Assembly: GCA_001189095.1 (NCBI GenBank)
Contig: LFCK01000001.1
Location: 84,485 to 148,484, forward strand
Source: Parcubacteria bacterium C7867-001
GTDB taxonomy: Bacteria > Patescibacteriota > Minisyncoccia > Phycocordibacterales > Phycocordibacteraceae
Length of the DNA: 64,000 bases
Direction of reading: 5' to 3'
Part shown: in pieces, positions 21,615-53,800 of the stretch
Layout: the number at the start of each line of letters is the position of its first letter
How positions within the stretch are numbered: position 1 is the first letter of the stretch
Program-made: the position numbers and the translations under genes
The notes under the pieces: model-generated
What the model was told of the DNA's origin: nothing
The model's database searches: none
The model's input: only the letters and a program-made list of their open reading frames with translations

Positions 21615-21685
21615 TTCTAAAGTTCCTTTCCATGGAAGAGGATGGATTCCCATTCGGCGATTGTCAAACTGATACCCCATCCATG

Positions 21686-23060: not shown

Positions 23061-24055
23061 CCGAATCTATCCTTCCAATCATCTGGTACTTCATCATCTG
23101 CGGCGAACTCGGTCTCTACATCCTGCTTGATGGCGCAAATCTCGGCATCGGCATCCTTTCTCTTTTTCCGCAGAAGGAAGAGGAGCGGGGAATCATGATG
23201 CGACTCTTGGGTCCGATTTGGAATGCGAATGAAACGTGGCTGCTGGTGGCAGCCGGCTCGCTCTTCGGCGCATTCCCTCTTGTATATGCAGTCGGCCTCA
23301 ATGCTCTCTACATACCGGCTGGTGTCATTCTCATCGGTCTTGCACTCCGCGCTGTGTCGTTTGAGTTCCATGCCTACGCGAACAATAAACGCTTCTGGAG
23401 CGGCATGTTCGGTGTTGCGAGCGCCATTCTCGTTGCGGGGCAAGGACTTGCGCTCGGAGGCTTACTGAGCGGCGTGAAAGTGGTTGATGGGAAGTTTGCA
23501 GGAAGCTTGTTCGACTTTGCGACGCCCGTTACGTTCCTCATAACCATCGGCATTTTCTTTAGTTACCTCGTACTGGGCTACGCCTACCTCATTCGGAATT
23601 CCTCGTATCAAAATTCAAATGAGACCTTTCCGCGCATTCTGATTGCGGCGGGAGGAACATTCATTGCACTGCTCGGCGCCACATTCCTCCTCCCAGAAAC
23701 GAACTACGTGTTTTTCGATCGTTGGACCATGTCGCCGACGATGTACTACCTCTTTGCGCTCGCGGGTGTTATTGGGTTTGTATCGGTTACGCTTGCGTAC
23801 TACGTCATCAAGAAAATACATCTCGAGCGCGTGTACTACTTGTGTCTCGGTATTTTCGTTTTAGGCGCACTTGGGATGCTTATCGGCACCTATCCGTATC
23901 TCCTCCCCGGTTCGATAACCATTTTCGAAGCGGCGTCTCCAGACTCGACGCTCTCCTTCATGCTCTGGGGTATCGGCCCGATTCTCCCCATCATCCTCCT
24001 CTACAACTTCTATCTCCATAAGATTTTTGCGAGAAAAACAGAGGGTGGGTACTAG
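23057..24055 (+). CDS. cydB: Cytochrome bd oxidase subunit II
   Basis: Overlapping start ATGA; polytopic 332-aa protein with CydB-like N-terminus IIWYFIICGELGLYILLDG. Confidence 0.7.
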   Translation: MTESILPIIWYFIICGELGLYILLDGANLGIGILSLFPQKEEERGIMMRLLGPIWNANETWLLVAAGSLFGAFPLVYAVGLNALYIPAGVILIGLALRAVSFEFHAYANNKRFWSGMFGVASAILVAGQGLALGGLLSGVKVVDGKFAGSLFDFATPVTFLITIGIFFSYLVLGYAYLIRNSSYQNSNETFPRILIAAGGTFIALLGATFLLPETNYVFFDRWTMSPTMYYLFALAGVIGFVSVTLAYYVIKKIHLERVYYLCLGIFVLGALGMLIGTYPYLLPGSITIFEAASPDSTLSFMLWGIGPILPIILLYNFYLHKIFARKTEGGY

Positions 24056-27210: not shown

Positions 27211-29135
27211 ATGTTTGGAAGAAGTTTCTTCATAAGCGCGCTTTTTGAAACCGTTGCTACTGCAAGCGCAGAATCTCCGCCGCCGTAATACACGAAGAGT
27301 GTATCTTCACGCAGGATGGAACCGCAGGAGAAGACCACGTTTGGGATTTCACCGATACGCTCCCAATCCAGTAGTGGCTCGAGTATAGGAACCGCGCTGC
27401 GTGCGAGTACCGAGACCCCGTCGGCTCCAAGGAGTGCCGCTCCAAGACGGTAGGCGTGATCGTGCCCAACGCCATGGTAGATGAAGAGCCAGCCCTCAGG
27501 AACTTTTATAGGTGGCCCGGCAGCGCCTATCTTTATTCCGTCCCACATTCCCGGACGCGGACCCATGACCTCGATACAACGGTTCGCGACGCGTTCAAAC
27601 TCAGTTGATTCAAACTGGTCGGCGCAGATGGTCGGGTCGAGTCGGTGGAGGAGCATCACTTTTCCATTCACGAGCTCGGGAAAAAGAGCGAGATCTTTGT
27701 CCGCAACGTCTTCCGGCGTCACCAGTTTTGGCGTCGCCCACTCCGTGAATTTCTTTGCGCGGAATGCGTCGACGGAAATAGAGCTTATCGTGCCGCGCGG
27801 CGGATGCACGCCGTCGTACGACGTATAGCAAAGGTAGATGGTGTCGCCGATGCGTGTGAGACGCGGATCTTCGCAGCCTGAATTGCCGTGCGCGTCACCA
27901 AGTTTTTGTTCGAATGGTTCGCGTGGGAGATATACGGGCGCGTCGAGTTTCTCATCGATATGCAGTCCGTCTTTGAGTCGTGCATAGCCAAGCACCGAAG
28001 TGTTTTCGAGACCCATGGCTCGATAGAGAAGATGTATCGAACCATCAAGATCGATTGCGGCAGCGTTCATCACATTCTTTGACTCCCATGAGTGTTCAGG
28101 ATTCGGTTCGAGAATGGGATTGTGCTGCACGCGGGTAAGGAACATCGAGCGCTTGGTTTCGCTCATCGTGTCGTAGAGGTCGGCAAACGAAAGTGCTGCC
28201 GTTGCGCACGAAGTGTCGGCGGCTCCGTAGTAAATCTCAAGGCGGTCGCCATTGAGGAGCGCGCCCGAGGGGAAGACGACGTTCGCAACGAGTCCGTAGC
28301 GTTCGTAAAACTCTTCTGGGACCATGAAGGGATAGGCGGTCTTTGCGAGCACTTTGCGCGGATCAGAAGCGTCGAGGATGAGTGCTTCTACCCCGAAAAT
28401 GCGTGCGTGCTCGTCGTAATAATTCTGTATGTGCGAATAGACGAGCAACCATCCATGCTCGGTCTTGATGGGTGTTGCTGCGACCTCCATGTGTTCGCTA
28501 TCGGCGCGACGAACGTCTGGAAGGGCGTGTTCGCCCAGATTCTGGTGCCACGCTTCCCAGTATGTTGGATTGAAAAAATCAGAAACTTCTTTTGCGCGCG
28601 CAATGCCGATGGTCGGGCGCGGATGCTCGGGGGTAAAGTCAGTATGTGCGGTAAGGAGAAGACAGACTTCACCGTCGACGCGCTCAGGGAAGAGTGTCAT
28701 CGCTTTTGCGTTAAAGGGCGTGATGAGGTGCTTTTCGGTGAGGGCGTCCGGCGTGGTGCCCATCGCGACTGCGCATTTAATGTTGTCTGGGCCAAACGGG
28801 TAGCCGCCAAGTGCGGTATAGAAGACGTACCACTTTCCTTCAAAAAAAGTTGCGCGTGGATCCTCGCAGCCATACGCGTCCCACGATTCAGACGGCGCGA
28901 TGACGCGTGTACGCTCGCTGGTAAGTCCGCCATTTGCAAAGAGTGCGTGGCCGATAGTTGAGAAGCTGCGATCCGGCGTCCGCAGTTTGTCCGGTTCCGC
29001 TCCAGCGCGATAGAAGATATGCGTATCGCCGTTCGTTCGAACGGCCGAAGGATTATATGCAGCGACATTTTCCCAGCCGTGCTCGCGCATCGGCGTAATG
29101 AGGGGGTTCTTGCTTGAGCGTTGTATGGCAAGCAT
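27207..29135 (-). CDS. Tandem glycoside hydrolase family 130 (GH130) protein, mannoside phosphorylase-like
   Basis: Two GH130/DUF377-like units, each with NP(L/I)(I/L)(T/E)P...W...NP.A...G...YRA...G.A...DG.H...P...GCEDPR. Confidence 0.65.
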   Translation of the reverse strand: MLAIQRSSKNPLITPMREHGWENVAAYNPSAVRTNGDTHIFYRAGAEPDKLRTPDRSFSTIGHALFANGGLTSERTRVIAPSESWDAYGCEDPRATFFEGKWYVFYTALGGYPFGPDNIKCAVAMGTTPDALTEKHLITPFNAKAMTLFPERVDGEVCLLLTAHTDFTPEHPRPTIGIARAKEVSDFFNPTYWEAWHQNLGEHALPDVRRADSEHMEVAATPIKTEHGWLLVYSHIQNYYDEHARIFGVEALILDASDPRKVLAKTAYPFMVPEEFYERYGLVANVVFPSGALLNGDRLEIYYGAADTSCATAALSFADLYDTMSETKRSMFLTRVQHNPILEPNPEHSWESKNVMNAAAIDLDGSIHLLYRAMGLENTSVLGYARLKDGLHIDEKLDAPVYLPREPFEQKLGDAHGNSGCEDPRLTRIGDTIYLCYTSYDGVHPPRGTISSISVDAFRAKKFTEWATPKLVTPEDVADKDLALFPELVNGKVMLLHRLDPTICADQFESTEFERVANRCIEVMGPRPGMWDGIKIGAAGPPIKVPEGWLFIYHGVGHDHAYRLGAALLGADGVSVLARSAVPILEPLLDWERIGEIPNVVFSCGSILREDTLFVYYGGGDSALAVATVSKSALMKKLLPNI

Positions 29136-29137
29136 AG

Positions 29138-30301
29138 CTAGGTGAAAGCGAGTGCGGGAGCGACGGGATGAATCGGCTTCGGTGCCTTGAGACGCTTGAG
29201 AAAACCTCCGAGTTCAATTTTTGCGGAGCAAACCACTGTATCTGCAGCGCCATAGTACACACGCAAAAATCCATCTTGTATCAGCGCACCGCATGCGTAC
29301 ACAATGCCTGATTTCGCGCCTTCGTTTTCGTAGTGCGCGTCGGGCACCAGTGCCGGAACTGAGGAGCGCGCGATGACTTTGCGTGGGTCTGCAAGATCGA
29401 GGAGTGCTGCGCCAAGCTTGTATCGATGTGATTCGTGGTCGGTCGCGTGATAGAGCACGAGCCATCCTTCGGGGGTCCGTATCGGCGGCGGTCCTGCACT
29501 ACGCATGCGCTTGTGCCACGATATCGGGTTGTCGGGCAGTGCGTTTGGATCGGGACTCTCTGTCTTCAGCTGGCTTGGCGTAAACGAGGCGATATCTTCA
29601 ACGTAATCGACGCGAACCGATGAAGGGTCTCCCGTGTGAAGATTGTGGAGTACGGCAAAATTCCCCTGTATCTTTCCGGGAAAGAGCACCCAGTTCTTGT
29701 GCCGCTCTCCCTGAGGCGATAGAAATACGGGTTTCGTCCAGCGCCACCGTTTGTGGGTGAGATCGTCAAGGGAGATGGAGGTAATCGCAACGCGCATCGA
29801 ATCCCAGCCATTGAACAAATTGTAGGTAAGGTACATGCGATCATCGATGACGACCGCGCGCGGGTCTTCAACACCGCTCCAACTTCCTCCTGAGCCGTAG
29901 AGTCCTGGATCGTACTTCGCATTTTTCGGATCGTATGGCTGAACGTTTTGGTGCGCGAACACCGGATAGGGAAGTCGTTCATCAAAATGCACCCCATCCT
30001 TACTCGATGCATACCCAATGCGCGAAACGCCGTCGGCGCCTATCGCTCGATAAAAAAGATGCACCTTACCATCCGCTTCAACGACGCCGGGATTCATAAC
30101 GGCGTTCTGCTCCCAGTCATACGTGGTTGCCTTAAGAATTGGATTAGCCTCTTCGCGGGAGAGCCCAAGCGAGCGGGTAAACGCAATGAGACGCTCGTGG
30201 AATTCTATCCACCGGGCAAGTTTCCAGAACGCGTAAAGCATCAATCCGGTCGTACCGAGCGCGAAGAGGAGTGCGGCGAGAAGCGCAAGAAGCTCCAGCA
30301 T
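29138..30301 (-). CDS. Membrane-anchored GH130-family protein
   Basis: N-terminal TM helix, then NPILKATTYDWEQNAVMNPGVVEADGKVHLFYRAIG...GVEDPR. Confidence 0.65.
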   Translation of the reverse strand: MLELLALLAALLFALGTTGLMLYAFWKLARWIEFHERLIAFTRSLGLSREEANPILKATTYDWEQNAVMNPGVVEADGKVHLFYRAIGADGVSRIGYASSKDGVHFDERLPYPVFAHQNVQPYDPKNAKYDPGLYGSGGSWSGVEDPRAVVIDDRMYLTYNLFNGWDSMRVAITSISLDDLTHKRWRWTKPVFLSPQGERHKNWVLFPGKIQGNFAVLHNLHTGDPSSVRVDYVEDIASFTPSQLKTESPDPNALPDNPISWHKRMRSAGPPPIRTPEGWLVLYHATDHESHRYKLGAALLDLADPRKVIARSSVPALVPDAHYENEGAKSGIVYACGALIQDGFLRVYYGAADTVVCSAKIELGGFLKRLKAPKPIHPVAPALAFT

Positions 30302-41679: not shown

Positions 41680-42867
41680 CTAGGACGGGAGGGTGCCGCT
41701 ATAGTCCATCCGTATTTCAGGGCGCTCCGGCTCGAGCTTGGTGCGGGTTTCCTCCGTATCGACCGAGCGTCCGCAGGGAAGCGAAATGCTTACGGTCGTC
41801 CCGTCGTTCTTTGCGCTCTTTATCACGATATGGCCGTGGTGGAGTTTTACGAGCTCGCTCACGATGGCGAGTCCGAGCCCGCTGCCGCCGCTCTTCCTCG
41901 CGCGAGACTGGTCCGCACGGTAGAACGGTTCGAAGATGTGGGCAAGGTCTTTTTCCGCGATGCCGATGCCTTTGTCCTCGATGGATAGCATGATGTGTCC
42001 ACGATAATCGGGTTCGATGGTAACGCGGATGATGCTGCCGTTTGCGCTGTAGGTGGCGGCGTTGCGGATGACGTTCATGACTATTTGCTCGAGTGCCGTT
42101 GCATTGCCCCAGACTTCTTTGTAGCCGTTTGCCTGCACCGAGACCGTGAGGTTCTTGCGGTCGATCAAATGCGTTAGGTGGCGCAACATTCGGTCGACGA
42201 CGTGGCCGAGGTCGACATTGGTGAACGGGATCTTCTCAGGCCGCACCAGCACATTGAGCGAGAGCAAGTTGTTGATGATGTCCGAAATGCGGTCCAGCTC
42301 TTCGAGGTTGTCGTTGTGCATTTCGCGGGCAGCTTTCGTTACGTCCGCGTCGAGAAGGCGTACCTCGGTGTTCGTTTTGATTATTGAAAGCGGAGTACGG
42401 AGCTCGTGGGCAATGTTCCCGATGAACTGTTTCTGCGCTTCAAGCGCATTTTTCGTCGGTGCGAGCGCGAGCCGCGTCATGAGATAGCCGAAGATTGCCG
42501 TGATAGCGGCGATACCCGCTGAGATAAGCACGAGTCCGCGAGTCTTCAGGTCTTCGACGTTCGCCGCGATGAGCACGCTCGAGCTTGTGCTCTGCGGATC
42601 GGGGTTCGGTGAAACAAGGTTGTTGGCGATGCCGGTAATGATTTCCGAGGAGACGTTCGCGTAGAGGATGTCGAAGCCTTCGCCGACGAGCGCGAGAATG
42701 ATGATGGTATAGAGGATCTGGAGCAGAACGACGTTCAGCTCCGTCCGAAAGAAAGGATCGTATCGGTATTTACGTACGAAGCCGATACCCGATGCCCCGA
42801 ACTGTTTCGAGTATCCCCGGAGCGCCTGCGTCAGCGAGTTTTCGTCTGAGGTTTTTGACATGGACAT
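41680..42867 (-). CDS. Sensor histidine kinase (HisKA + HATPase_c); start uncertain, as the ORF overlaps the response regulator by ~98 nt
   Basis: H-box IGNIAHELRTPLS, N-box and G-boxes; two TM helices. Confidence 0.8.
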   Translation of the reverse strand: MSMSKTSDENSLTQALRGYSKQFGASGIGFVRKYRYDPFFRTELNVVLLQILYTIIILALVGEGFDILYANVSSEIITGIANNLVSPNPDPQSTSSSVLIAANVEDLKTRGLVLISAGIAAITAIFGYLMTRLALAPTKNALEAQKQFIGNIAHELRTPLSIIKTNTEVRLLDADVTKAAREMHNDNLEELDRISDIINNLLSLNVLVRPEKIPFTNVDLGHVVDRMLRHLTHLIDRKNLTVSVQANGYKEVWGNATALEQIVMNVIRNAATYSANGSIIRVTIEPDYRGHIMLSIEDKGIGIAEKDLAHIFEPFYRADQSRARKSGGSGLGLAIVSELVKLHHGHIVIKSAKNDGTTVSISLPCGRSVDTEETRTKLEPERPEIRMDYSGTLPS

Positions 42868-43444
42868 CTATGACATTACTGAATGATTCATAATTGAAAT
42901 CCCACAAGTGCGTGAGCAGGTCCTCGCGGTTGATGACCTCGTTCGGATGCCGCATGAAGTGCTCAAGCAGCATGAACTCTTTAAGGGTCAGCGAGATTTC
43001 CGTGCCACCCTTGGTTACTTCGTGGGTGGTCGGATTAAGCTCCATGTCGTCCACGGTCAGTATATCAACGAGTACGCCTGTTGGGCGGCGCAGAAGCGCT
43101 TGGATACGGGCGACAAGTTCGTCGAAGGAGAACGGCTTCACCATATAGTCGTCGGCGCCGCTGCGTAGCAACCTCACCTTGTTTTCGGTTTCGTTGCGCG
43201 CGGTCAGTACGAGCACGGGGGTCATGATGCCGCGCTTTCGCATCTCCTCGCATATTTCGAATCCGGAAAGCGTAGGGAGCATAAGATCGAGCAAGATGAG
43301 ATCGTAATCCTTCCGATGGACCGACACACGCGTAAGGGCTTTTTCGCCGTCATCGATCGTGTCGACGGCGTACCCGTGCTTCTCGAGGCCCTTTTTTATG
43401 CCCTCAGCGAGCTTCTGTTCGTCTTCGACAACAAGTAGTCTCAT
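42770..43444 (-). CDS. OmpR-family response regulator
   Basis: REC domain (DLILLDLMLP) plus winged-helix trans_reg_C. Confidence 0.85.
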   Translation of the reverse strand: MRLLVVEDEQKLAEGIKKGLEKHGYAVDTIDDGEKALTRVSVHRKDYDLILLDLMLPTLSGFEICEEMRKRGIMTPVLVLTARNETENKVRLLRSGADDYMVKPFSFDELVARIQALLRRPTGVLVDILTVDDMELNPTTHEVTKGGTEISLTLKEFMLLEHFMRHPNEVINREDLLTHLWDFNYESFSNVIDVHVKNLRRKLADAGAPGILETVRGIGYRLRT

Positions 43445-43639: not shown

Positions 43640-43819
43640 CTACTCCTCTGTTGGATAAGAGGTCGTCACACGGTCTTCCATGGGGTCGAATTCGTCCACC
43701 ATGTCCCCCTCCGTTCCGTCTGACTCCTTCTTCTCGTCGTCCTTGTCCTCCTTAGGTGCCTCACGGGGTTCGTCGTCGAGAAGCTCGTCTTCCGGCGCGC
43801 GGCGTGTGCGTTTATTCAT
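43640..43819 (-). CDS. Small acidic protein (59 aa), hypothetical
   Basis: Unlisted ORF MNKRTRRAPEDELLDDEPREAPKEDKDDEKKESDGTEGDMVDEFDPMEDRVTTSYPTEE; sits at the 3' end of the pilus operon. Confidence 0.25.
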   Translation of the reverse strand: MNKRTRRAPEDELLDDEPREAPKEDKDDEKKESDGTEGDMVDEFDPMEDRVTTSYPTEE

Positions 43820-43931
43820 AGACGTGCGCGGTTAGTGGTAATGAGAATAGGAAACCATCTAGCGCGCGAAGTTTTGGTGAAGGAAAAGTAAAACGGCCCG
43901 CGAAGCGGGCCGTTTTACGAAGGATACGCGT

Positions 43932-44381
43932 TTAGCGAGTGACCGAAATGATTGCTGTTGCTGGGGGAAGCTGAGTGTCTGGAGCTGCTACCGTAACGCG
44001 GCCGTTGCTTTCAAGCAAGACGGTGTATTGCGTATCAGCTGCCGAGCCGGTTGTTGGGTCGGTCGGGATAGCTGTTACGTACGTTGGTGTAAGGCAGGAG
44101 AGATTGATGTTCGAGCCGCCGGTACCAATGTTGGTTGCAGACGACGGAAGAGTGACCAAGCCGCAAGTGAAGACACCCTTGTTGTCCGCCATGTTCTGGC
44201 CGATAGCATTAAGGATGGTGTTTACATGCGAAGTACGGGTCGTGTTGTTTGCCTGAGCGAACTGACGAGCCGGATTAATCGCCACGATGACGATCGTCGC
44301 GAGAATCGCGATAATACCGATAACGACGAGGATCTCGATGAGCGTGAAGCCGCGTGTTCCGGTTGAAGCGGAAGTTGACAT
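43932..44381 (-). CDS. Type IV pilin-like protein (prepilin)
   Basis: MSTSASTGTRG/FTLIEILVVIGIIAILA class III signal peptide and hydrophobic helix. Confidence 0.8.
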   Translation of the reverse strand: MSTSASTGTRGFTLIEILVVIGIIAILATIVIVAINPARQFAQANNTTRTSHVNTILNAIGQNMADNKGVFTCGLVTLPSSATNIGTGGSNINLSCLTPTYVTAIPTDPTTGSAADTQYTVLLESNGRVTVAAPDTQLPPATAIISVTR

Positions 44382-44485
44382 ATTAAGTAAGTATTTTGAA
44401 GTGGGAACGATTGCTAAGGTATCCTTCCAGGGATAGGTTGCCGGTATTGTGGACTTTTTCTCCGAAGAGTCAAGGTCGTCGTGGA

Positions 44486-47133
44486 CTACGGGACTTCGGT
44501 CCACGAACCAATCGAGATTGAAGGAGGAGGGGGCGGAGGAGGCGGCGCAGGAGGGGTGGCTGGTGTGCTCCACTCGTCGTTATCGCTTGAGCTGTAGGAA
44601 GCGCCGTTACTTGCATCGCCATCGGTGTGGCAGCCGGCGTCTTCGGCGTCGATGAGGCCATCGCCATCGTCATCAACCGTGTTTGCGCAGGCTGCTGCAG
44701 CGGCTGGGCAGATTTGTGTACCAATTGATTGGAAGATACCGCTCATAGCGCTTGAAGCTGGTGCGATGAAGAGGTTGGTGTGGGTCACGCTACCTCCTCC
44801 TGAGCTGCCGTTTGAGCCGCTCTGGGAATAGGTGAAGGTGACGGGTGTCGGTGTCGAGACGACACGGAAGGTTCCGTTGTAAGCGGCGTTCGTGACGCCA
44901 CTTATGACGATACGCTCATTCACTACGACGCGATGCGGAATGCTGGTCGTTACCGTCACGGTATTGCTTGCACGCGAGATTGAGGTGATGGATATTGCAG
45001 GGAGCGTACTCGGGCTCGAAAGCGATTGCAGGAAGTTTTGGCCGCTCGCATCGCCGAAGTGGATGCTGAAGATGTTGACGCCGTTCGCTCGTGCGTTTGT
45101 TGCAGCGGTTGAGGCAAAGGTCGAAGGGTCGGTCGGGACTGTGTAGGAAACGCGGGCGTTCACGTTGTCGAGTGCGCAGGTCGGTCCTGACGTAAGTTCG
45201 TGCACGCGGACGCGGAAGTTCGCATCGGTAAAGTCGGACGGAGTGAAAGTACGCCCGCTCCATGGGTTGTCGAAGGTGGTCGAAGCCATCGAGGTCGAAA
45301 GTGTAGCGGTTTGTTCGCTCGTCCAGCTGCTGCCGCCATTCCACGAAACTGCAGTACCGAGCTGGCAGGAGCCGCTTTGCTGATACGTCACGCGGACGCG
45401 GATATGATCGAGGCTTACCGTGCTTCCGCTGCAGTTTCCTCCCGAAGCATCATCGAAGGAAACCTTCGCGACGAAGTTAGTATTCGTGAATTCGCTCGCG
45501 GACCATGTGTGTCCCCACGTGTCGCTTGCGGAACCGAGGGTATAGGTCGTATCGGATCCTGAGAGGTTAGTGGTCTTAGTGCTGGTGTTACTCGAGCCGT
45601 TATTCCACGAGAGGCGGGTTTGGAGCTGGCAACCGTTTGTATCGGATGATTTCGCACGCGCTTCGACCTCGATGCCGAGAATGGTCGCACCGCTTGGAAT
45701 GGTCGGTAGATTGAAGGACCCGTAGCCCTGTTCGTCGTTTTCGTTCGTTTCGGTTGCGTAGCTACCATTTTGGAACGTGAACGCATTCGTTGCGTTCGAC
45801 CAGTTGTTTGGTGATTTTGTCGCAGACGGGAGAAGGAATCCGGTGTTCGCTACGATTGCAGGCGAGGAAGAGGCACGCGTTTGCACTTCGACGTTTGTGA
45901 TAGTCGCGTTCGATGGAATGCTACCGAAGCCGAAGGTAAAGTATTGGTGCGTATGAGCTCCGCTATCGCTGACGACTCCTGCGCCATAGGCGCCGGCAGG
46001 ATTCGTCCACGCGTTCCCTGAGCTTCCTGCTGCGTTTGCCGACGGAGCTCGCCAACCGCTGTTGAGTGGACTCGAGCCTGACGGTTCGTTCGGGAGACCG
46101 TCCGACACAAAGATGAGCACCTTGCTCTTCGCGCTGTCATGGCGCGCGCTCGCGAGTTCCGTATCAGCGACGTTAACTGCGGCACCAAGATTACTTCCCA
46201 CGCTGCTGTTGCTACCGGTTATAGAGGTGAGGGTTGAAGAAAGGGTGCTGTAGAAGTTCGAAAGCTGCCCATTCGTCGGGATGGAGGCGGGGCTACCGTC
46301 AAGACCGCCGAAGCTTCCGACTGCAATCTTCGGGAGTGCAGCGACACCTGCGTAGAGATTGATGAGGGCGTTACCAGCTGAGCGTTCATTATTAAGATCC
46401 GTGCCTGACATACTGCCGGTTCGGTCGAAGACCATTGCGGTATCCGCGCAGGAGGGTGCGGGCGGCGGCGCGGTAACGGTGACTGTTGCGCTGCAGGTGT
46501 TTGAACCGCCGGCATTAGTGGCGGTCATAGTAAAGGTTACGGTGCCGGGGCTTACGCCCGGATTAAAGGTGTAGGAACCGCTCGAAAGCGGAGAAATTGA
46601 GCCCACGCCATGGTCGATGCTTGCGCTCGTTGCGCCGCCGGAAGTGCTCCAGAGGAGGGTGAGGTTCTGGCCAAAAGGTAGGGAGGTTGGGGAAGCGATG
46701 AGTGCGCAGTTTGGTGGTGGGGTAACGGCTGCCACTGCAGGGTCCTGGGCAGTCGCAGAGACGGAAAGCGTGCTCCATGCGCCGCGGAATCCAGCCTTGG
46801 TTGTGATGGTGTAGGTTCGTTTGCCGTTTACTGCCATTGGGGTCACGGTCGGGCCCAGAATGGCGCAGGACGTCGCTGAGCCGTATGCGGTGCCGAGCGT
46901 AACGGTCTCGCCGCCTACGGGTGCCACGTAGTTGTAATCGACGCCTATTTTCGAGAGCGCAGAATGCACGCACGCTTCTGCAAGCCCGAGCGAGATGCGT
47001 TTGTACTCGCTGTTGAGCACATCGAAGCGCGAGAAGAAGGTGGTGTTCGCAAGCGTAGTCGCAAGACCGAGCAGAATCGTCGAAATGACGACAGCTGAGA
47101 TGAGTGCGATAAATCCTCGGGGTTTAGTAGTCA
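44486..47133 (-). CDS. Giant pilin-like protein (882 aa) with vWA/MIDAS domain, reiterated ~100-aa module and C-terminal Ca-binding-like plus polyproline tail
   Basis: N-terminus MTTKPRG/FIALISAVVISTILL; MIDAS motif DRTGSMSG...LIFVSDGLPN; repeated IPSGATILGIEVEARAKSS...W...VTY module; DDDGDGLIDAEDAGC; PPAPPPPPPPP. Confidence 0.65.
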
Positions 47134-47135
47134 TA

Positions 47136-47633
47136 TTATTTTCGTAGATAGACGGTGGTGGTCGCCTGACGCATGACAAGCGAACCGGTTGGCGTGCGTG
47201 CGGAAAGCGTTACCGATGCCTCGACCGACTCAGGTGTGATGCCGTCTCCTGATCCTTCCGTATGCGTGACGGTGAAGGCCGTCACAAAAACGTTCGTATT
47301 GTTAAGCACAGCAGGCGATCCGCCACCCTTCGAGAGGGTAAGGTTCGTGCCGTTCTGGGCGACGACGACGGGATTTCCGATGCTCGTATCCCACTTGGCG
47401 ACCGTGAGCGCGCTGCCGGTCGTACCGACGCCGGGTGCCGTTACTGCCTGCGCGCCCGAAAGGGCCCAGTTCACTTTCGCGATGAGGAAATCAGTTTCTT
47501 CTTGCAGCATGACGCGCGTGCCACCGCGTTCCGCCGCCTCAAAAAGGTTGTATGCACCAACAACCGCTCCTCCAATAAGGATGGTGAAGAGTGCGATATA
47601 GACGAGCGTTTCAAGAAGAGTGAAGCCTTTCAT
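47136..47633 (-). CDS. Pseudopilin / type IV pilin-like protein
   Basis: MKG/FTLLETLVYIALFTILIG prepilin motif. Confidence 0.8.
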   Translation of the reverse strand: MKGFTLLETLVYIALFTILIGGAVVGAYNLFEAAERGGTRVMLQEETDFLIAKVNWALSGAQAVTAPGVGTTGSALTVAKWDTSIGNPVVVAQNGTNLTLSKGGGSPAVLNNTNVFVTAFTVTHTEGSGDGITPESVEASVTLSARTPTGSLVMRQATTTVYLRK

Positions 47634-47634
47634 A

Positions 47635-49623
47635 CTATGGTGCGGTGATGATGGAAATCGAACCCTTGTTCGCATTCCCGCCTGTGGTAGGAACAGAAGC
47701 AGCAAAGAGATAGTTATCCTCGCAATCAAGTGCGGTACCAGCGGCAGATGATGGAAGGGTGACAGCGGCACCTGGATTCATTGACCCGTTTGCCGCGATG
47801 CTTGCAATCTGCACTTTTCCACTTGCGCCCGTTGTGTTGCCGGTGAGAAGAAACGCGAGGGATCCACGAATAATCGTGTCGTACACACCGATGGTGTTCC
47901 CGCTCGTGCCGATGTCATAGCTGCTTGTAAGTGTTGGGGTGGCGTTCGTTACGTCGAGTGTGAGTGACTCGGCGGCGTTGTTGAGACTGTAATAGCGACC
48001 GAGATAGAGCGTATTGCCGACCGTGTAGAGACTTTTTCCTTGGCCGCCCGTTGAACCTGCTGCGTCATACACACCACGAAGCGTGGGGTGGGCAAGATCC
48101 TCAAGATCAAGAGCGATGAGTTCGCGATTCGTGTCGTCGGTTGCAAGATAGGCACGTGCGCTGCGCACGTAGATTGCGTTTATGCCCGCGCCAACCTCGT
48201 AGGTGCCAAGAGGAGTTGCAGGAATAGAGAGCGGGTTATGGACGTCGATGACGTAAAATTCCGGTCCAGAAGGATTATTTGCGAGTCCAAGGAAGACATA
48301 GCCATCTTTATAGAAAATAGAGCGCGCGACCACGCTTCCGCTCGGAACGCTCCACGTGCTCGTTGCAAGCGGGATGGTCGGCGTGACGTCTATGGCTTGG
48401 AGCTGTTTTGTCGTCGAGTTGGTCGCGACGAAAGCGAAATTGCCTGAGTTCGTCGTGGTCGCCACCGCGACCGCGTTAATGCCGGCATTTACGGAGTTGT
48501 TTGCAAGGCCTCCTCGCAGAGTTGGCACGCTGTGGTTGCTGACATTCAGCACATAGAATTGGTTGATGTAGGTCACCGTAATTTTCACATTGTCGACCGA
48601 TGCCGTGCGGCTTCCAAAACCCGACCCTGAGGTAGCCGAAAGCACGACGCCGAAGGCTGAATTGTTTATGTCACTCGCGGAGAGATAGTTTTCGCCCCAC
48701 AGATCACTCGTGTTGCCGTAGTTTGCGGTTCCGTCCGAAGTGGGCCAGCTGCTGCTCGTATTTGCTCGGTTTGCGCTGCTCAAGCTTCCGTCTGGCTTCA
48801 CGAGACGAACAACCGAATCGCGCACGGTATTCGTGCTACTCGAGCCCTTGCGTTCAATGTCCACCTGCACGCCGAGAATGGTAGCTCCCTGCGGTATCGA
48901 AAAGCCGAAGTTGGTCGCTTTAAGATAGCGAGTGGTTTGGCTCGATGAGAGAGAAGCGGTTGTGTAGTTGTTGTCGCTTGAAAGCGCGTTGCTTGGATTG
49001 TTCCATGATACGGTGCCGCCCGCGCTGTCGGACACACTGGTTCCTGTGTTGCGCGCTGCTGGTGTGACAGATGGCGTATTCACTGCAACATAGAGACGTT
49101 GCTGGTGTGCATCGACGTCGGTGATCGGATACAGTCCCGAACTGTCGCCGAGGATGTCGGCACCAAGAAGCGCTTTGGTCGGGTTCACAACGAACGGGAA
49201 TGACCAGTTGCCGGTGACGATGGAATCGCAGGTATCGCCGCCGATGATGTTTGAGAAGTTACTCACCACGGTCTGAAGCTCGACTTTCTGGCCGCGTCCG
49301 TACATGCCGCCCCACGCGACCAGTGCGGTCACGTGCTTGGTATAAAAATTCACCGAATCTACCGTGATGGTTTTCGTGTAGAGTGTGCCACCGATGGTTT
49401 CCGTGCTGGTGGTCGCAAGCACGAGACGAAAGTCTTTGCGCGAGAGCGCTTGTTCGTTTTCGATCATCTTGCCGGCGACGCCGAGCGCTTCCGCATTCAT
49501 CTCGGTGTCGACCGCGCCCGATTGGATGCCGGGGAAGAGCATGAGCACTGCCGAAAGTGAGAGGATGAGCACGGTCATCGCAATGAGCATTTCGAGCGTT
49601 GAGAATCCGCGGAGGTTTTTCAT
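47635..49623 (-). CDS. Giant pilin-like protein (662 aa) with one copy of the repeat module and a C-terminal LVIVD-like beta-propeller region
   Basis: MKNLRG/FSTLEMLIAMTVLIL; module SIPQGATILGVQVDIERKGSS...VDNVKITVTY; repeated G..Y/L...A/L..D patterns in the last ~300 aa. Confidence 0.65.
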   Translation of the reverse strand: MKNLRGFSTLEMLIAMTVLILSLSAVLMLFPGIQSGAVDTEMNAEALGVAGKMIENEQALSRKDFRLVLATTSTETIGGTLYTKTITVDSVNFYTKHVTALVAWGGMYGRGQKVELQTVVSNFSNIIGGDTCDSIVTGNWSFPFVVNPTKALLGADILGDSSGLYPITDVDAHQQRLYVAVNTPSVTPAARNTGTSVSDSAGGTVSWNNPSNALSSDNNYTTASLSSSQTTRYLKATNFGFSIPQGATILGVQVDIERKGSSSTNTVRDSVVRLVKPDGSLSSANRANTSSSWPTSDGTANYGNTSDLWGENYLSASDINNSAFGVVLSATSGSGFGSRTASVDNVKITVTYINQFYVLNVSNHSVPTLRGGLANNSVNAGINAVAVATTTNSGNFAFVATNSTTKQLQAIDVTPTIPLATSTWSVPSGSVVARSIFYKDGYVFLGLANNPSGPEFYVIDVHNPLSIPATPLGTYEVGAGINAIYVRSARAYLATDDTNRELIALDLEDLAHPTLRGVYDAAGSTGGQGKSLYTVGNTLYLGRYYSLNNAAESLTLDVTNATPTLTSSYDIGTSGNTIGVYDTIIRGSLAFLLTGNTTGASGKVQIASIAANGSMNPGAAVTLPSSAAGTALDCEDNYLFAASVPTTGGNANKGSISIITAP

Positions 49624-49624
49624 A

Positions 49625-50128
49625 TTAGTTGGTCCACCAGATGCGGCCTTCCGACTCGACCGTAATCACTGAGGTGTGTCCGCCTTGATCGATGACGGTA
49701 AGCGTCGTCGCTCCTGCTGGATTTGGAACCGTATTCCCCGAAAGTTCGAAGAACGTCATGCTTGAGAATCCGCTCACCGAAGCGGCTGCGTTTTTTGCCT
49801 CGATGATTTCATCGACGGCAGTGTCGCGTGTGGCGTAGGTCGCGCCCTGATAGATTACGTACTTGCCGGTGAGGCCGAAATAGACGCCGTGCGGCTTTCC
49901 GTCGGTGCAACCGGTGCCGAAGCACATATTGTTGATGGCTTGGCTGCGTGCTTTCTGGAGTGTGCTCACGATAATGTCGCGTTCGTTGCGAAAGGTGAAT
50001 CCGCGGAAATCATCGAAATTAACAAACAGGCCGAATGCGCCCACGATCGTGACGAGGCCAAGTACGACGATTATTTCGAGCAGGGAGAACCCGCGCGGAC
50101 TATGGATGGAGATTCTGGGTGATTCCAT
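49625..50128 (-). CDS. Pseudopilin / type IV pilin-like protein
   Basis: MESPRISIHSPRG/FSLLEIIVVLGLV. Confidence 0.75.
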   Translation of the reverse strand: MESPRISIHSPRGFSLLEIIVVLGLVTIVGAFGLFVNFDDFRGFTFRNERDIIVSTLQKARSQAINNMCFGTGCTDGKPHGVYFGLTGKYVIYQGATYATRDTAVDEIIEAKNAAASVSGFSSMTFFELSGNTVPNPAGATTLTVIDQGGHTSVITVESEGRIWWTN

Positions 50129-51236
50129 AAATTGGAGTGATGATGGCGACCGCAATGAAGCCAACGACAAGGCCCATCATCACCATGAGTGCTGGCTCGA
50201 TGAGGCTCGAGAGATTCTTCGAGAATTCCTCGACTTCGGACTCGTACAGCTCCGAAAGATAGATGAGTGTGTTGGAGAGACTGCCCGAACGTTCACCGAC
50301 TGAAATCATCTGGGAGAGCACCGGCGGGAAGAGGAATGAGTTCAAGAAGAACGATTTGGAGAGCTGTTCGCCGCGTATGATGGCTTCGCCTGCTTTACGG
50401 TATTCCGCCTTATACACCAGGTTTTGCGTCGTGTCCGCAGTAAGTGGAAGTGCTTCAGCAAGCGTCATACCGCTTTTTATAAGGAGGCCGAGGGTACGCG
50501 TTGCGTTTGCAAGGTTGTAGGAACGAAGCATTTCGCCGAAGAGCGGCATACCGAGCATCCAACCGTCGAGCAGGTAGCGGAAGCGCTGGCTCTTGCTGCG
50601 CACCACGATGATAGTGATGAGTATCGCGATGAGCGCGAGCATCGTCCAAAGACCCCACGCCTGGAGGAAGGTCGAAACCGCAATCACAATTTTTGTTGTG
50701 AGCGGGAGTTCCATATGGAGCGACGCGAAGATCGGCATGATCTTCGGGAAGAGGTAGAGCATGAGGAAGCCCGTGATGCCGATGGTCGCAAGCGTAATAA
50801 CGATTGGATAGACGAGCGCGCCGATTATTTTCTGTTTGAGCGAATGGCGCTTCTTCAGTTCGTCGGCAAGATAGTTGAGGTTTTCCGAAAGGGTTCCTGA
50901 GGACTCACCTATGCGAACAATATTCACCGCATAGTCGCCGAACACCGAATCGAACTTGCTGAAGCTGCGCGCGAGCGAGGAACCGTTCGAGATGTCCGCG
51001 ATAACGCTCGTGAGCACACGCGCGTGGCGACGCGAGAGTGTTTGCTCGGCAATCATGGAAAGACTCTCAAGGAGTGGAACACCGGCACTTGCGAGGAAGG
51101 AGAGGCGCTTCATGAGGAACATCTGTTCCTTTACGGAAAGGCGTGGTGTGGTCTGTCGCTCGTACGTTGCATACCACGTTCCCATGCGCGTCTGCGCATT
51201 CTGGGTGAAGCGAGAAATGTGGCGCATGCTATTCAT
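50100..51236 (-). CDS. pilC: Type IV pilus / T2SS platform protein PilC/GspF
   Basis: Two T2SSF repeats, three TM helices; start ATGAATAG overlaps the pilB stop. Confidence 0.8.
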   Translation of the reverse strand: MNSMRHISRFTQNAQTRMGTWYATYERQTTPRLSVKEQMFLMKRLSFLASAGVPLLESLSMIAEQTLSRRHARVLTSVIADISNGSSLARSFSKFDSVFGDYAVNIVRIGESSGTLSENLNYLADELKKRHSLKQKIIGALVYPIVITLATIGITGFLMLYLFPKIMPIFASLHMELPLTTKIVIAVSTFLQAWGLWTMLALIAILITIIVVRSKSQRFRYLLDGWMLGMPLFGEMLRSYNLANATRTLGLLIKSGMTLAEALPLTADTTQNLVYKAEYRKAGEAIIRGEQLSKSFFLNSFLFPPVLSQMISVGERSGSLSNTLIYLSELYESEVEEFSKNLSSLIEPALMVMMGLVVGFIAVAIITPIYGITQNLHP

Positions 51237-52485
51237 GGACAACGCGAAGGACTTCTTCGATGGTCGTATCGCCGGCGCGGACCTTTTCCATACCGTCCTC
51301 AAGCATGGTGGTCATACCTTCTTTGATAGCGGTCTGGCGTATCGCTTCAGCAGAAGCTTTGGTAAGAATGAGCTCGCGCAGCGCCGGGGTTGCCACGAGC
51401 ACTTCGTTAATGGAAAGACGTCCGCGATAACCAGATTCATTGCAGTTCGCGCACCCTTTGCCGCGATAGATGGTTTCGCCTTTCGCAAAGGGTTTTTCGA
51501 CCGAGAGCTGTGAAAGACGCGCAAACTCTGCGTCGGTAAGCGTGTGCTTTTCCTTGCACATGTCACAGATCTTGCGCACGAGACGTTGGCCAATGGCGAT
51601 ATTCATCGTTGACGCGACGAGATACGGATCAATGCCCATGTCGGAAAGGCGTGGAAGGGTCGTTGTTGCGTCGTTGGTGTGAAGCGTTGAGAAGAGTAGG
51701 TGGCCAGTGAGTGCAGCGTTCACCGCGATGGTGGCTGTTTCGCCGTCACGGATTTCGCCAACCATGATGATGTCTGGATCCTGACGGAGAATGGAGCGGA
51801 GTCCGGTCGCAAACGTAAGGCCGCTGCGGGTATTCACCTGAATCTGCTCGATCGAATCGACGGAATATTCGATCGGGTCTTCAATGGTAACAATGGCGAC
51901 CTCCGGCGCACTCAGCATCTTGATGAGCGTATAGAGCGTGGTGGTTTTTCCTGAGCCAGTAGGGCCCGTCGAAAGAATCATGCCGCTCGTCTTGTGGATG
52001 GCCGTTTCGATCTTCTTACAGTCGCTTTCACTAAAACCAAGCATGGCAAGGGAATAGTTTTCGCTGTGATCTGCGAGGATACGGAGCACACAGTTTTCGC
52101 CGTGGTAGGTCGGCGCGATAGAGACACGTATGTCGATAAAGCGTCCGTCGGAGAGTGCTTGGCGGAAGCGTCCGTCTTGTGGCGTGTGGTGTTCGTCGGT
52201 GCGCAGCTGAGAGACAACCTTGATGCGGGAAATGACCTCCTGATGGATGCTTTTCGGGAACGACTCGATGTCCTGTAAGACGCCGTCGACGCGGAAGCGG
52301 ATACGGACGGATTCGCGGGCCGGATCGATATGGATATCGGACGCATTCATCAGATGCGCTCGTTCGAGGAGCGTTTCGAGGACGCGGATGATGGAGATAT
52401 CGTTACCCTTCGCAAGCTCGCTGGCGAGGCTTGCTTTGAGTTCGGAACCTACCACCCCACCTGGAACTGGGGACGGTGATTGCAT
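51229..52485 (-). CDS. pilB: Type IV pilus assembly ATPase PilB/GspE
   Basis: Walker A GPTGSGKTTT, Asp box, His box, and tetracysteine CDMCKEKH...CANC. Start chosen at MQSPSPV; the track's longer N-terminus looks spurious. Confidence 0.85.
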   Translation of the reverse strand: MQSPSPVPGGVVGSELKASLASELAKGNDISIIRVLETLLERAHLMNASDIHIDPARESVRIRFRVDGVLQDIESFPKSIHQEVISRIKVVSQLRTDEHHTPQDGRFRQALSDGRFIDIRVSIAPTYHGENCVLRILADHSENYSLAMLGFSESDCKKIETAIHKTSGMILSTGPTGSGKTTTLYTLIKMLSAPEVAIVTIEDPIEYSVDSIEQIQVNTRSGLTFATGLRSILRQDPDIIMVGEIRDGETATIAVNAALTGHLLFSTLHTNDATTTLPRLSDMGIDPYLVASTMNIAIGQRLVRKICDMCKEKHTLTDAEFARLSQLSVEKPFAKGETIYRGKGCANCNESGYRGRLSINEVLVATPALRELILTKASAEAIRQTAIKEGMTTMLEDGMEKVRAGDTTIEEVLRVVHE

Positions 52486-52591
52486 ATAAGGACGCTCGTA
52501 GTATACGAATCGGCGGACTTTTGTCGAGTGATTTGACAAAGCGTCAATATGTCCGTGATTTCCCAATGTATGAGCTGCTAAACTATGAACC

Positions 52592-53800
52592 ATGAATGAA
52601 TCGACGGCGCGTCCGTACTGCGTAGAGTGCGGCGGTGAGGCGGTGATGCATCGCCTCACCTATATATCGGTATTCATGGATGGGATACTCATGCCGCGCG
52701 TGAAGCCGAATGGTTTTACGCGTTGGTTCGCCTCGCTGGTGCAAAGCATCGAGTGCCGCGTCACGCCGTTCCTCCTCAAAGGATTCGTACTTCTTGGACT
52801 CGCCCGTAAAGTGGACGTGCCGGACGAAAAGACCGTACTGCTCGCAAAGATGCTCTGGGAAGACGCGACGCGACGCTCGATTCCGATGTGGGAATTCCGC
52901 CTCTTTAATCTCGCGCGCAACGTATATGTCGCTGAGTTGCCGGATGGCCGCTCGATTGCGTTCGAGGGAATTCCGGTGACGAAAGCGGACCTCAAGCGCG
53001 CTCCGTGGATGGATGATAAGGCGGAACTCAAGAAGCGATTCCGTGCGCTCGGACTTCCTATCGCTGCCGGCGGTGACGCGCTTACGACTGACGGCGCCCT
53101 GAAGCTTTTCCGGTCGCTCAGCGCACCGGTCATTGTGAAGCCTTTTACTGGTTCAGCTTCGCGCCATACGACGCTCCATATTCGGAACGACCTCGAGCTT
53201 CTGCGTGCGTTTGATATTGCGACGCAGCTCGCGCCTCGCGCAGTAATAGAAGAAGAGCTTGTGGGGCCGGTGTATCGCGCGACCGTAGTCGACGGCAAGC
53301 TTGCTGCTACTCTGCGTCGGGACCAGCCGCACGTTATTGGCGACGGGCATCGCACCGTGAAGTCGCTTGTCGCAAAAGCCAATGAGCACCCTGCTCGTTC
53401 GGGTCCGTACTTCCATCCGATGCAGATCGACAAGGCGGCGGAACGGGAACTCGCCTATCAAGGCCTTACGCCCGATTCCATTCTAAAGAAAGGTCAGCGG
53501 GCGACGCTCCATCAAAAGATAAACTGGGGTCTCGGCGGAACGACGGCGGATGTGACCGACGAAGTGCATCCTGAGACGAAAGAGCTTTTCGAGGAGGTTG
53601 CGCGCGTCACGAGTGCACCGGTTGTGGGCATTGATTTCATCATCGGCGACATAACGCGCTCTTATAAGGAACAGGAACGCTGCGGCATCATCGAGTGCAA
53701 TTCCATGCCGTTTTTTGATAATCACCACTTGCCATTTGAGGGGCAGCCGCGGAATGTCGCGGGCGCTATTTGGGACATGATTCTCGCTGAAGGGCGGTAA
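52592..53800 (+). CDS. ATP-grasp ligase, cyanophycin synthetase N-domain-like (stand-alone, no Mur-ligase domain)
   Basis: VIVKPFTGSASRHTTLHI, ViGDGhrTv, INWGLGGTTADVTDEVHPE and VVGIDFIIGDI closely follow the CphA ATP-grasp pattern. Confidence 0.5.
   Translation: MNESTARPYCVECGGEAVMHRLTYISVFMDGILMPRVKPNGFTRWFASLVQSIECRVTPFLLKGFVLLGLARKVDVPDEKTVLLAKMLWEDATRRSIPMWEFRLFNLARNVYVAELPDGRSIAFEGIPVTKADLKRAPWMDDKAELKKRFRALGLPIAAGGDALTTDGALKLFRSLSAPVIVKPFTGSASRHTTLHIRNDLELLRAFDIATQLAPRAVIEEELVGPVYRATVVDGKLAATLRRDQPHVIGDGHRTVKSLVAKANEHPARSGPYFHPMQIDKAAERELAYQGLTPDSILKKGQRATLHQKINWGLGGTTADVTDEVHPETKELFEEVARVTSAPVVGIDFIIGDITRSYKEQERCGIIECNSMPFFDNHHLPFEGQPRNVAGAIWDMILAEGR

Follow-up and report, generated by a model that had tools for sequence, protein, structure and literature searches.

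The DNA examined here is a 64-kb stretch (hereafter "the window") from Parcubacteria bacterium C7867-001, whose source genome bin comprises 812 kb. Between positions 52485 and 43932 of the window, seven tightly packed genes on the minus strand encode a predicted type IV pilus (T4P) extension ATPase (PilB), a platform protein (PilC), and five prepilins of 167, 662, 165, 882, and 149 amino acids (aa). Two of the prepilins are giant modular pilins, one of which carries a beta-propeller and the other a vWA domain that is interrupted by two copies of a module nested one inside the other. We consider it probable that these genes form a core T4P operon whose tip complex, composed of four minor pilins, uses the vWA and propeller domains as adhesins for attachment of the cell to a partner cell or a surface. 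The genes are as follows, where a slash in a leader separates positions -1 and +1, and where AF2 denotes an AlphaFold2 model with its predicted local distance difference test score (pLDDT).

51229 to 52485, minus strand: pilB, extension ATPase, 418 aa (Pfam T2SSE 5.5e-123; Walker motifs and a CxxC...CxxC Zn motif visible in the sequence; identical to KND51772.1).
50100 to 51302, minus strand: pilC, platform protein (Pfam T2SSF 9.5e-50, two stretches).
49625 to 50128, minus strand: minor pilin 1, 167 aa, GspH/FimU-like, leader MESPRISIHSPRG/FSLLE (TIGR02532 20.1, cutoff 16.3).
47635 to 49623, minus strand: giant modular pilin 2, 662 aa, leader MKNLRG/FSTLE (pilin module aa 1-125, propeller aa ~131-660).
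47136 to 47633, minus strand: minor pilin 3, 165 aa, in the GspJ/PilW position, leader MKG/FTLLE (Pfam N_methyl 4.2e-6).
44486 to 47134, minus strand: giant modular pilin 4, 882 aa, Glu5-less, GspK/PilX-like, leader MTTKPRG/FIALIS (AF2 pLDDT 82.6).
43932 to 44381, minus strand: pilin 5, 149 aa, candidate major pilin, leader MSTSASTGTRG/FTLIE (Pfam N_methyl 2.3e-6, TIGR02532 2.9e-7).

The predicted proteins correspond to GenBank calls KND51765-KND51772 and have the same starts (418, 167, 662, 165, 882, and 59 aa), and both giant pilins are 100% identical to proteins of Parcubacteria bacterium C7867-001. The start of pilC is uncertain, as a TTG codon at 51302 yields a protein of 400 aa and alternative ATG codons are located at 51236 or 51227. 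The pilC gene overlaps gene 3 by 29 nucleotides (nt), genes 3 to 6 are separated from one another by 1-nt spacers, and a 104-nt gap (44382-44485) is present 5' of the last pilin gene. An initial annotation made from the sequence had proposed a compact T4P operon at this locus, and the T2SSE and T2SSF matches, the five prepilins, and the lack of PilM, PilN, PilO, and PilQ bear this out. The gene order and strand that it gave also stand for the seven genes, but not for an eighth, 59-aa open reading frame (ORF) that lies beyond the operon terminator and is not conserved, and its length of 150 aa for the last pilin becomes 149 aa upon comparison with GenBank. Public annotation names the giants "autotransporter adhesin" and "hemagglutinin/hemolysin-related protein" and lists the small pilins as "hypothetical"; for the genes of a giant-pilin operon, such annotations are misleading.

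The source bin was recovered from Hanford groundwater. The authors who described it pointed out that the OD1 core genome has a T4P operon lacking PilQ, for which they suggested a role as an attachment device (PMC4508563). The seven-gene order described above is present in 26 of 35 species-level genome loci, which represent Paceibacteria, Nomura-, Giovannoni-, Nealson-, Yanofsky-, and Doudnabacteria; contig ends truncate another seven loci, and two do not conform. Likewise, the order pilB, pilC, pilin, propeller pilin, pilin, vWA pilin, pilin is found in five of six metagenomic loci (the L001-L007 set). The Parcubacteria "core" pilus operon is a fixed seven-gene plan. Modular pilins have already been catalogued, and the operon is a known kind of system in a new form. 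In the literature, we found no description of a fixed seven-gene plan with PilY1-like domains divided between two core minor pilins, nor of the unnamed module family or the way in which it nests recursively around variable cargo.

The 882-aa pilin can be divided into the parts listed below. Secondary structure is given according to DSSP, MIDAS denotes the metal ion-dependent adhesion site, Ig stands for immunoglobulin, and module positions refer to a hidden Markov model (HMM) built from 31 module sequences.

46745 to 47134, minus strand: pilin module, aa 1-130 (DSSP helix 7-65, the long alpha-1; strands 76-130, a four-stranded sheet).
46472 to 46711, minus strand: Ig-like (PKD-like) domain, aa 142-221 (Pfam PKD 0.0032, sub-threshold; DSSP all-beta 142-221).
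46061 to 46444, minus strand: first part of the vWA domain, aa 231-358, with MIDAS D237-x-T239-x-S241, S314, and D345 (Pfam VWA 1.2e-6, profile 3-117 of 174).
45860 to 46036, minus strand: N-half of the outer module, aa 367-425 (HMM positions 2-66).
45371 to 45826, minus strand: complete inner module, aa 437-588, nested within the beta4-beta5 loop of the outer one (HMM positions 3-156, 137.6 bits).
45131 to 45367, minus strand: C-half of the outer module, aa 590-668 (HMM positions 71-156).
44711 to 45127, minus strand: remainder of the vWA domain, aa 670-808, interrupted by a small beta domain at aa ~714-791 (DSSP order).
44489 to 44710, minus strand: C-terminal tail, aa 809-882, with C-P-A, an acidic Cys-bracketed DxDxDG-type loop, poly-Pro, and an invariant I-x-I-G-S-W-x-E-x-P end.

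The vWA domain and MIDAS motif that had been noticed at the outset are supported both by the Pfam match and by the conservation of the MIDAS residues in 37-38 of 38 relatives (D237 38/38, T/S239 38/38, S241 37/38, S/T314 38/38, D345 38/38). The domain is split by a beta-rich insert of 300 aa (aa 359-668), after which DSSP assigns a helix at 670-683, a strand at 686-693, and further helices at 699-705 and 794-808. A spliced vWA profile was made from 13 relatives by removing both inserts and was searched against the PDB. This profile aligns over positions 3-198 of 209 with collagen VI and over positions 4-172 with vWF A3, and the best PDB E-value improved from 0.0066 to 9.4e-7 upon removal of the inserts. 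Because the spliced profile restores nearly the whole vWA match, we conclude that the domain is truly split.

Homologues of the 882-aa pilin number 48 and span 817-1476 aa. Within the pilin module, C55 and C90 are nearly invariant, and mature position +5 is occupied by I, M, T, V, or L, with E found in 0/38 relatives. Glu5 is needed for normal subunit packing, and its absence is a trait of GspK. No T2SSK, PilX, or PilX_N match was obtained for the window protein at E <= 0.1, or for the 38 relatives at E <= 0.01. In the tail, the acidic Cys-bracketed loop matches NCBIfam acid_disulf_rpt at 9.5e-7, which is under the family cutoff but agrees with the calcium-binding-like motif that had been pointed out there. 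The neighboring proline stretch, previously given as P11, actually reads PPAPPPPPPPP. Although the tail has an AF2 pLDDT below 50 and is disordered in the model, it is conserved at W878 (38/38), at E880 (37/38), and at its prolines (30-37/38). Possibly, the end of the tail folds back as a strand onto the pilin sheet or binds to a partner pilin.

A vWA pilin of 1320 aa also occurs in a different setting. In loci L006 and L020, which are on one contig (CAZQVT010000004.1), this protein is encoded beside recA, ftsK, and recG, and two short pilin-like ORFs are found nearby, with no pilB or pilC. The report on Nanosynbacter lyticus TM7x mentions an essential pilin beside recA (PMC11623550).

On sequence evidence, the insert of the 882-aa protein comprises two module copies of ~150 aa, with one copy residing inside the beta4-beta5 hairpin of the other. 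The initial annotation had proposed three copies of ~100 aa in this protein, but a tandem array of this kind is rejected by the HMM coordinates given above and by spliced alignments. The reiterated module itself is real, as the copies align far above chance (shuffle z-scores of 8-24). In addition, the one copy that the 662-aa protein was said to share is recovered by blastp against the 882-aa protein at 3.7e-15.

One alternative is that the module reflects nothing more than compositional bias in a Ser/Thr/Asn/Gly-rich beta sequence, and that the nesting is an artefact of alignment. Indeed, the proteins are of low complexity and rich in S, T, N, and G, and the two outer halves match the HMM weakly when taken singly (17.7 and 24.1 bits). 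However, the spliced N- and C-halves can be aligned with the inner copy from one end to the other (z = 23.8, a score that no shuffle reached), and they produce a single-domain HMM match at positions 8-153 with 59 bits. When tested with an HMM made without the 882-aa family, the spliced halves still score 22.7 bits, compared to 5.3 bits or less for 200 shuffles. According to DSSP, strands and short helices follow one another in the spliced outer copy just as they do in the 662-aa protein's single copy, and AF2 pLDDT values are 82-95 over most of the module region. Furthermore, 130 N-halves and 113 C-halves share one split point at HMM position 68-70 (the median N-half ends at 68 and the median C-half starts at 70), and N-halves are followed by C-halves in palindromic fashion in 74 of 315 proteins, with patterns that include NFC, NFFC, NFFFC, NNFCC, and NNCCF. 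Compositional bias is thus refuted at the sequence level, and we regard it as almost certainly wrong.

The top PDB match obtained with Foldseek for the 882-aa model is birnavirus VP2 (E 5e-5), which is a jelly roll in a jelly roll. In VP2, a beta-sandwich is likewise nested in a loop of a beta-sandwich. However, there is no sequence similarity, and the likeness is topological only (TMq 0.08-0.09, TMt 0.15-0.18). The two domains of VP2 are also not homologous copies of one module, unlike the pair in the 882-aa pilin. The nested arrangement predicted here draws on sequence, on DSSP order, and on a match to VP2 at the level of topology.

A further copy of the module is carried by the second giant, the 662-aa pilin.

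48553 to 49035, minus strand: module copy, aa 197-357 of the 662-aa pilin (HMM 190.8 bits, positions 2-156).

The AF2 model of this protein, which was generated from an alignment with 68 relatives, has a pLDDT of 92.6 and a predicted template modeling score (pTM) of 0.88. A 55-residue alpha-1 helix (residues 9-63) and a four-stranded sheet form the pilin module, and 28 propeller strands correspond, by strand count, to seven four-stranded blades. Foldseek identifies WD40 and BamB propellers at ~1e-6 as matches to this model. The LVIVD family (PF08309) is sub-threshold in the window protein, with 19.4 bits compared to a cutoff of 20.2 (6.7e-4), but is matched in 64 of 69 relatives with a best value of 2.3e-20. 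Together with the propeller in the AF2 model, these matches agree with the LVIVD-like repeats that had been noted from the sequence. Of the 133 homologues found for this pilin, some are named PilV or PulG by JGI. We considered whether the propeller might be a member of the PilY1 family and rejected this assignment, because there is no match to the PilY1 domain (PF05567 / IPR008707) and because this is an LVIVD-type propeller carried by a pilin.

The module copy of the 662-aa pilin sits between strands 2 and 3 of blade 1, where it is flanked by propeller strands at 167-181 and 356-372 (DSSP). This insert is present in 11 loci and absent in 21, and relatives without it are ~500-520 aa in length. 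The operon thus has three module copies in total, each of which is located within a loop of another domain, namely propeller blade 1, the vWA domain, or the outer module.

The module appears to be very widespread, although it is largely invisible to existing family collections. A profile search of the PDB gave no sequence match at E <= 10, Pfam-A searches with 31 members at E <= 1 returned only single noise matches, NCBIfam has no match in the region, and PHROGs was matched by one member at 0.0028. In contrast, the module profile matches 21,076 of 1.84 billion representative proteins (clusters at 50% identity) at E <= 0.001, and 16,422 at E <= 1e-10. A class III signal is present in only 3 of the top 146 matches, which indicates that the module is not specific to pilins, and its partner domains include TSP3 repeats, He_PIG, and DUF6701. 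A protein of 1541 aa (P0172) has four N-halves, a segment of ~205 aa that is unrelated to the module, and then four C-halves, and so reads as four levels of nesting around a foreign cargo domain. Copies nested within one protein are only 32-55% identical to each other, which makes the arrangement an old one that has been maintained. In the family of the vWA pilin, the outer copy is split in nearly all relatives and its content is variable, consisting of an unmatched region of ~160 aa, one to three complete copies, or a further nest.

These observations can be accommodated by a joint reading, for which we judge the chances to be a little short of even. In this reading, the module represents an undescribed and very large family that inserts into itself at one hairpin and serves as a pluggable stalk, whose inner cargo is a host-range determinant. 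The stalk formed by a nested array would be two-stranded, with its start and its end at one point, and hence would fit into any surface loop, as seen here for a vWA domain and a propeller blade. Such a stalk would hold a variable binding domain away from its carrier. A search of the literature for self-nested domains yielded nothing relevant, which is not proof of novelty. A huge, unannotated family of domains that nest within themselves is relevant to domain classification, to protein evolution, and to the design of display scaffolds with meeting ends.

Processing as pilins is predicted by the N-termini of all five proteins. The residues G-1, F+1, and E+5 are present in four of the five, and the motif is invariant in the orthologues of these four. 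Three pilins are backed by N_methyl or TIGR02532 matches, and the 662-aa pilin by a ComGE-like N-terminus (Pfam, NCBIfam). Class III N-termini of the "xLE" type had been claimed for both giants. For the 662-aa protein, the sequence G/FSTLE agrees with this claim. The 882-aa protein has a class III G/F site but no Glu at +5, and therefore is not of the "xLE" type. Thus, the signals are class III rather than ordinary Sec signals, with that of the 882-aa protein being a Glu5-less, GspK-like variant.

The missing Glu5 residue is also relevant to the possibility that the giants are not filament subunits at all, but surface adhesins that use the class III signal and helix as a membrane anchor in a manner like that of the archaeal bindosome. 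The public names "autotransporter adhesin" and "hemagglutinin-related" would also fit such proteins. We consider this possibility improbable. Glu5-less subunits such as GspK are tip subunits of filaments (PMC8179133), and the 662-aa protein has the full canonical signal. In addition, the pilin modules of the giants are predicted by AF2 to adopt normal lollipop folds, and their genes are interleaved with those of small minor pilins in a fixed order in at least 26 species.

Among the small pilins, the 167-aa pilin 1 matches Pfam GspH at 0.0038 (model positions 5-105 of 108) and XpsH at 6.5e-5. Its matches to the globular domain of GspH are weak and are obtained for two of six orthologues, including that of locus L001 at 0.0093 (Pfam). 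Residues G13, F14, and E18 are invariant among these six orthologues. For the 165-aa pilin 3, the GspJ match reaches just 0.01 and involves the N-terminus alone, and no Pfam match to a globular domain was found among six orthologues, in which G3, F4, and E8 are invariant. Assignment of pilins 1 and 3 to the GspH/J or PilW subtypes through PDB profiles was rejected, since the matches correspond to the generic N-terminal helix only.

The 149-aa pilin 5 is distinct in that it resembles major pilins. A GspG-like match was obtained at 1.1e-6 (NCBIfam), and a profile from six orthologues matches the major pilins Geobacter PilA (2.3e-8), Thermus PilA4, and PilA5 in the PDB, with the PilA5 match being full length. 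This is the most conserved of the pilins, with ~60 N-terminal residues that are nearly invariant. Its gene is preceded by the 104-nt gap noted above, and a gap of ~90-120 nt is present at the equivalent place in five related loci. Three putative transcription signals flank or interrupt the operon.

52500 to 52527, minus strand: promoter-like site TCGACA-16-TATACT, 15 nt upstream of the pilB ATG (10/12 consensus positions).
44446 to 44473, minus strand: promoter-like site inside the 104-nt gap (9/12 positions, weak).
43888 to 43918, minus strand: intrinsic terminator ending the operon (14-bp stem with 9 G-C pairs, 3-nt loop, T-rich tail).

Promoter-like sites are no more numerous in the region than is expected from shuffled sequences, and hence constitute weak evidence. 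The site in the gap may be an internal promoter that boosts expression of the major pilin. Because of its matches to major pilins in the PDB, its highest conservation, and the conserved gap with a promoter-like site, the 149-aa pilin is probably the major subunit.

The terminator lies 14 nt past the stop codon of the last pilin gene. The 59-aa acidic ORF (43640-43819, KND51765.1) is found beyond this strong terminator, forms a singleton cluster, has no Pfam or NCBIfam family match, and has no counterpart in the related loci. We therefore place this ORF outside the operon, and, although it is called in GenBank, it may not be a real gene.

Several observations weigh against our proposal that these genes produce a T4P with an adhesive tip. 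PilB and PilC match the GspE and GspF models slightly better than the PilB and PilC models, with PilB scoring 505.7 bits for GspE and 471.2 bits for PilB (both under the NCBIfam equivalog cutoffs), and PilC giving 4.3e-87 for GspF and 3.1e-69 for PilC. Among the 48 ORFs scanned in the 64-kb window, there is no prepilin peptidase (PilD, Peptidase_A24) and no PilT, PilM, PilN, or PilO, and PilQ likewise was not found. The only PilM_2 match in the window (1.5e-6) is FtsA beside FtsZ. The absence of PilM, PilN, PilO, and PilQ nearby had also been remarked upon in the initial annotation. Furthermore, no Pfam PilX, T2SSK, or PilY1 domain was detected, and the equivalence to GspI and GspJ follows from gene position alone, as PDB profiles matched just the N-terminal helix. 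Finally, the AF2 model of the 882-aa protein has a pTM of 0.49, and the relative placement of its domains is not confident, which is expected for beads on a string.

Some of these same observations could be explained if the genes encode a short pseudopilus like that used for type II secretion or for Com-type DNA uptake, with the giants capping a piston or capturing DNA or other substrates. In addition to the better GspE and GspF matches, the proteins match ComGA (2.6e-78), ComGB (4.3e-43), and ComGE-like N-termini, no retraction ATPase is encoded nearby, Candidate Phyla Radiation (CPR) cells rely on imported nucleotides, and the vWA pilin of one relative adjoins recA. However, the GspE, GspF, and Com matches are all under their equivalog cutoffs, and neither a secretin nor an outer-membrane context is evident. 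Pilin 5 is similar to Thermus PilA5 and Geobacter PilA, which are major subunits of true pili, and heads made of vWA-MIDAS or propeller domains are adhesin modules in every characterized pilin case (PMC8179133, PMC11623550). We therefore view a pseudopilus as unlikely, and favor a true pilus with an adhesive tip.

Comparisons with known systems are consistent with an adhesive pilus. Raynaud et al. (2021) defined modular pilins and catalogued architectures of both the pilin-vWA and the pilin-LVIVD (IPR013211) kind, many of which occur in CPR phyla (PMC8179133). The giants described here conform to this scheme, in that the AF2 models have an alpha-1 helix and beta-sheet followed either by a propeller or by Ig and vWA domains, and in that Pfam VWA and LVIVD are matched. 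The vWA modular pilin PilB of Streptococcus sanguinis is a metal-dependent tip adhesin (PMC8179133). S. sanguinis PilB and the lectin modular pilin PilC likewise combine a class III signal and a small pilin module with a bulky adhesin module (PMC8179133, PMC9934059), PilB likewise has a vWA domain with a canonical MIDAS, and both belong to a monoderm-type T4P without a secretin, with a tip location having been proposed for both pilins. There are several differences from PilB. The 882-aa pilin lacks the Glu5 residue that PilB has, carries an extra Ig domain, and has a vWA domain interrupted by two insertions, one of which is the nested pair of unnamed modules, as well as the conserved poly-Pro and SWxExP tail. 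Apart from the generic vWA fold, no sequence similarity between the two was found.

PilY1 of Pseudomonas (P. aeruginosa) and Myxococcus unites a vWA domain and a propeller and sits on the minor-pilin tip complex (PMC8179133, PMC9210963). PilY1 together with FimU-PilV-PilW-PilX likewise places vWA and beta-propeller domains on a tip or priming complex of four minor pilins, and the gene order described here parallels fimU-pilV-pilW-pilX-pilY1-pilE. However, PilY1 is a single protein that is not a pilin and has a PilY1-type propeller (IPR008707), whereas here the domains are distributed over two pilins, with an LVIVD-type propeller and no match to Pfam PilY1. By analogy, the two giant pilins may work as a pair like PilY1, without being members of the PilY1 family.

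A precedent within Patescibacteria is Nanosynbacter lyticus TM7x, in which the propeller pilin PilX2 is required for host binding (PMC11623550). The largest minor pilins of this organism likewise have a jelly roll (PilX1) and a heptabladed propeller (PilX2), and their signal peptides are non-canonical, as in the 882-aa pilin. The jelly roll of PilX1, described as "absent from CD-Search," can be likened to the module by description only. The two systems differ in that the PilX2 propeller is composed of RCC1 repeats rather than LVIVD repeats, PilX1 and PilX2 belong to two different pili, and no vWA domain or nested module is reported for TM7x.

GspK has been described as a modular pilin located at the tip (PMC8179133). 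Similar to the 882-aa pilin, GspK is Glu5-less, is the largest minor (pseudo)pilin, is encoded by the fourth minor pilin gene, and has additional material grafted on the pilin fold. In GspK, this is an alpha-domain within the pilin beta-sheet, whereas the 882-aa protein has ~750 aa of adhesin-type domains and no T2SSK match. The sortase-pilus tip adhesins RrgA, SpaC, and GBS104 likewise position a vWA/MIDAS domain with beta-rich insertions at the pilus tip, and SpaC is found at rank 47 when the 882-aa model is searched with Foldseek. However, those pili are covalent structures with unrelated assembly, and their inserted arms differ from the module.

Based on these comparisons, we propose the following mechanism. 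PilB and PilC would assemble a thin filament with the 149-aa pilin as its main constituent. A priming or tip complex would be built from the four upstream pilins, in positions that parallel GspH-I-J-K of type II secretion and FimU-PilV-PilW-PilX of type IVa pili, with the second and third being assigned by position only. The second minor pilin would present the seven-bladed LVIVD propeller, and the fourth, which is GspK-like, would cap the filament and present the Ig domain and a metal-dependent MIDAS vWA adhesin domain. The nested modules leave the vWA fold 14 residues after D345, the last MIDAS residue, and they might form a two-level stalk that projects from the ligand-binding face and ends in a variable distal domain. 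Such a tip could anchor a host-dependent cell on a partner cell or a surface. That the tip functions as an adhesin is our inference from the analogies with S. sanguinis PilB, PilY1, and TM7x PilX2.

The content of the nested module differs between species, being empty or consisting of one to three tandem copies, deeper nests, or a foreign domain. This variability makes the content a likely determinant of specificity. To our knowledge, much of bacterial diversity belongs to CPR/Patescibacteria, every cultivated member lives attached to host cells, and Saccharibacteria are the only group in which host recognition has been studied by experiment. The interior of the nested module is of interest as a concrete and testable candidate for a determinant of host specificity.

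The surroundings of the operon vary among the loci. In the window, a 402-aa gene (52592-53800, plus strand) is divergent from pilB and has no Pfam match, and a gene of the same size occupies the same position in L005. In L003, L004, and L007, the gene divergent from pilB encodes a surface protein of very large size (901 to 1496 aa or more) that has SpaA-like and PG_binding domains; the window has no such neighbor. On the other side, a gene pair for a histidine kinase and an OmpR-type response regulator (41680-43444, minus strand) adjoins the operon. A pair of this kind is also near the operon in L001, but is there on the opposite strand relative to the operon.

Three additional regions of the window are distant from the pilus genes. 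Subunits I and II of a cytochrome bd oxidase are encoded at 21642-24055 (plus strand), and this oxidase was previously reported in the C7867-001 bin by Nelson & Stegen 2015. At 24802-30301 (minus strand), a HAD-like hydrolase and an FAD-linked oxidase are fused in a single 802-aa protein, and two GH130 (mannoside phosphorylase-like) genes come next, with products of 642 and 387 aa. Lastly, a 965-aa protein is encoded at 8120-11017 (minus strand) by DNA with a G+C content of 0.46 compared to ~0.54, and its sole match is an LCAT-like lipase/acyltransferase domain in the middle of the protein.

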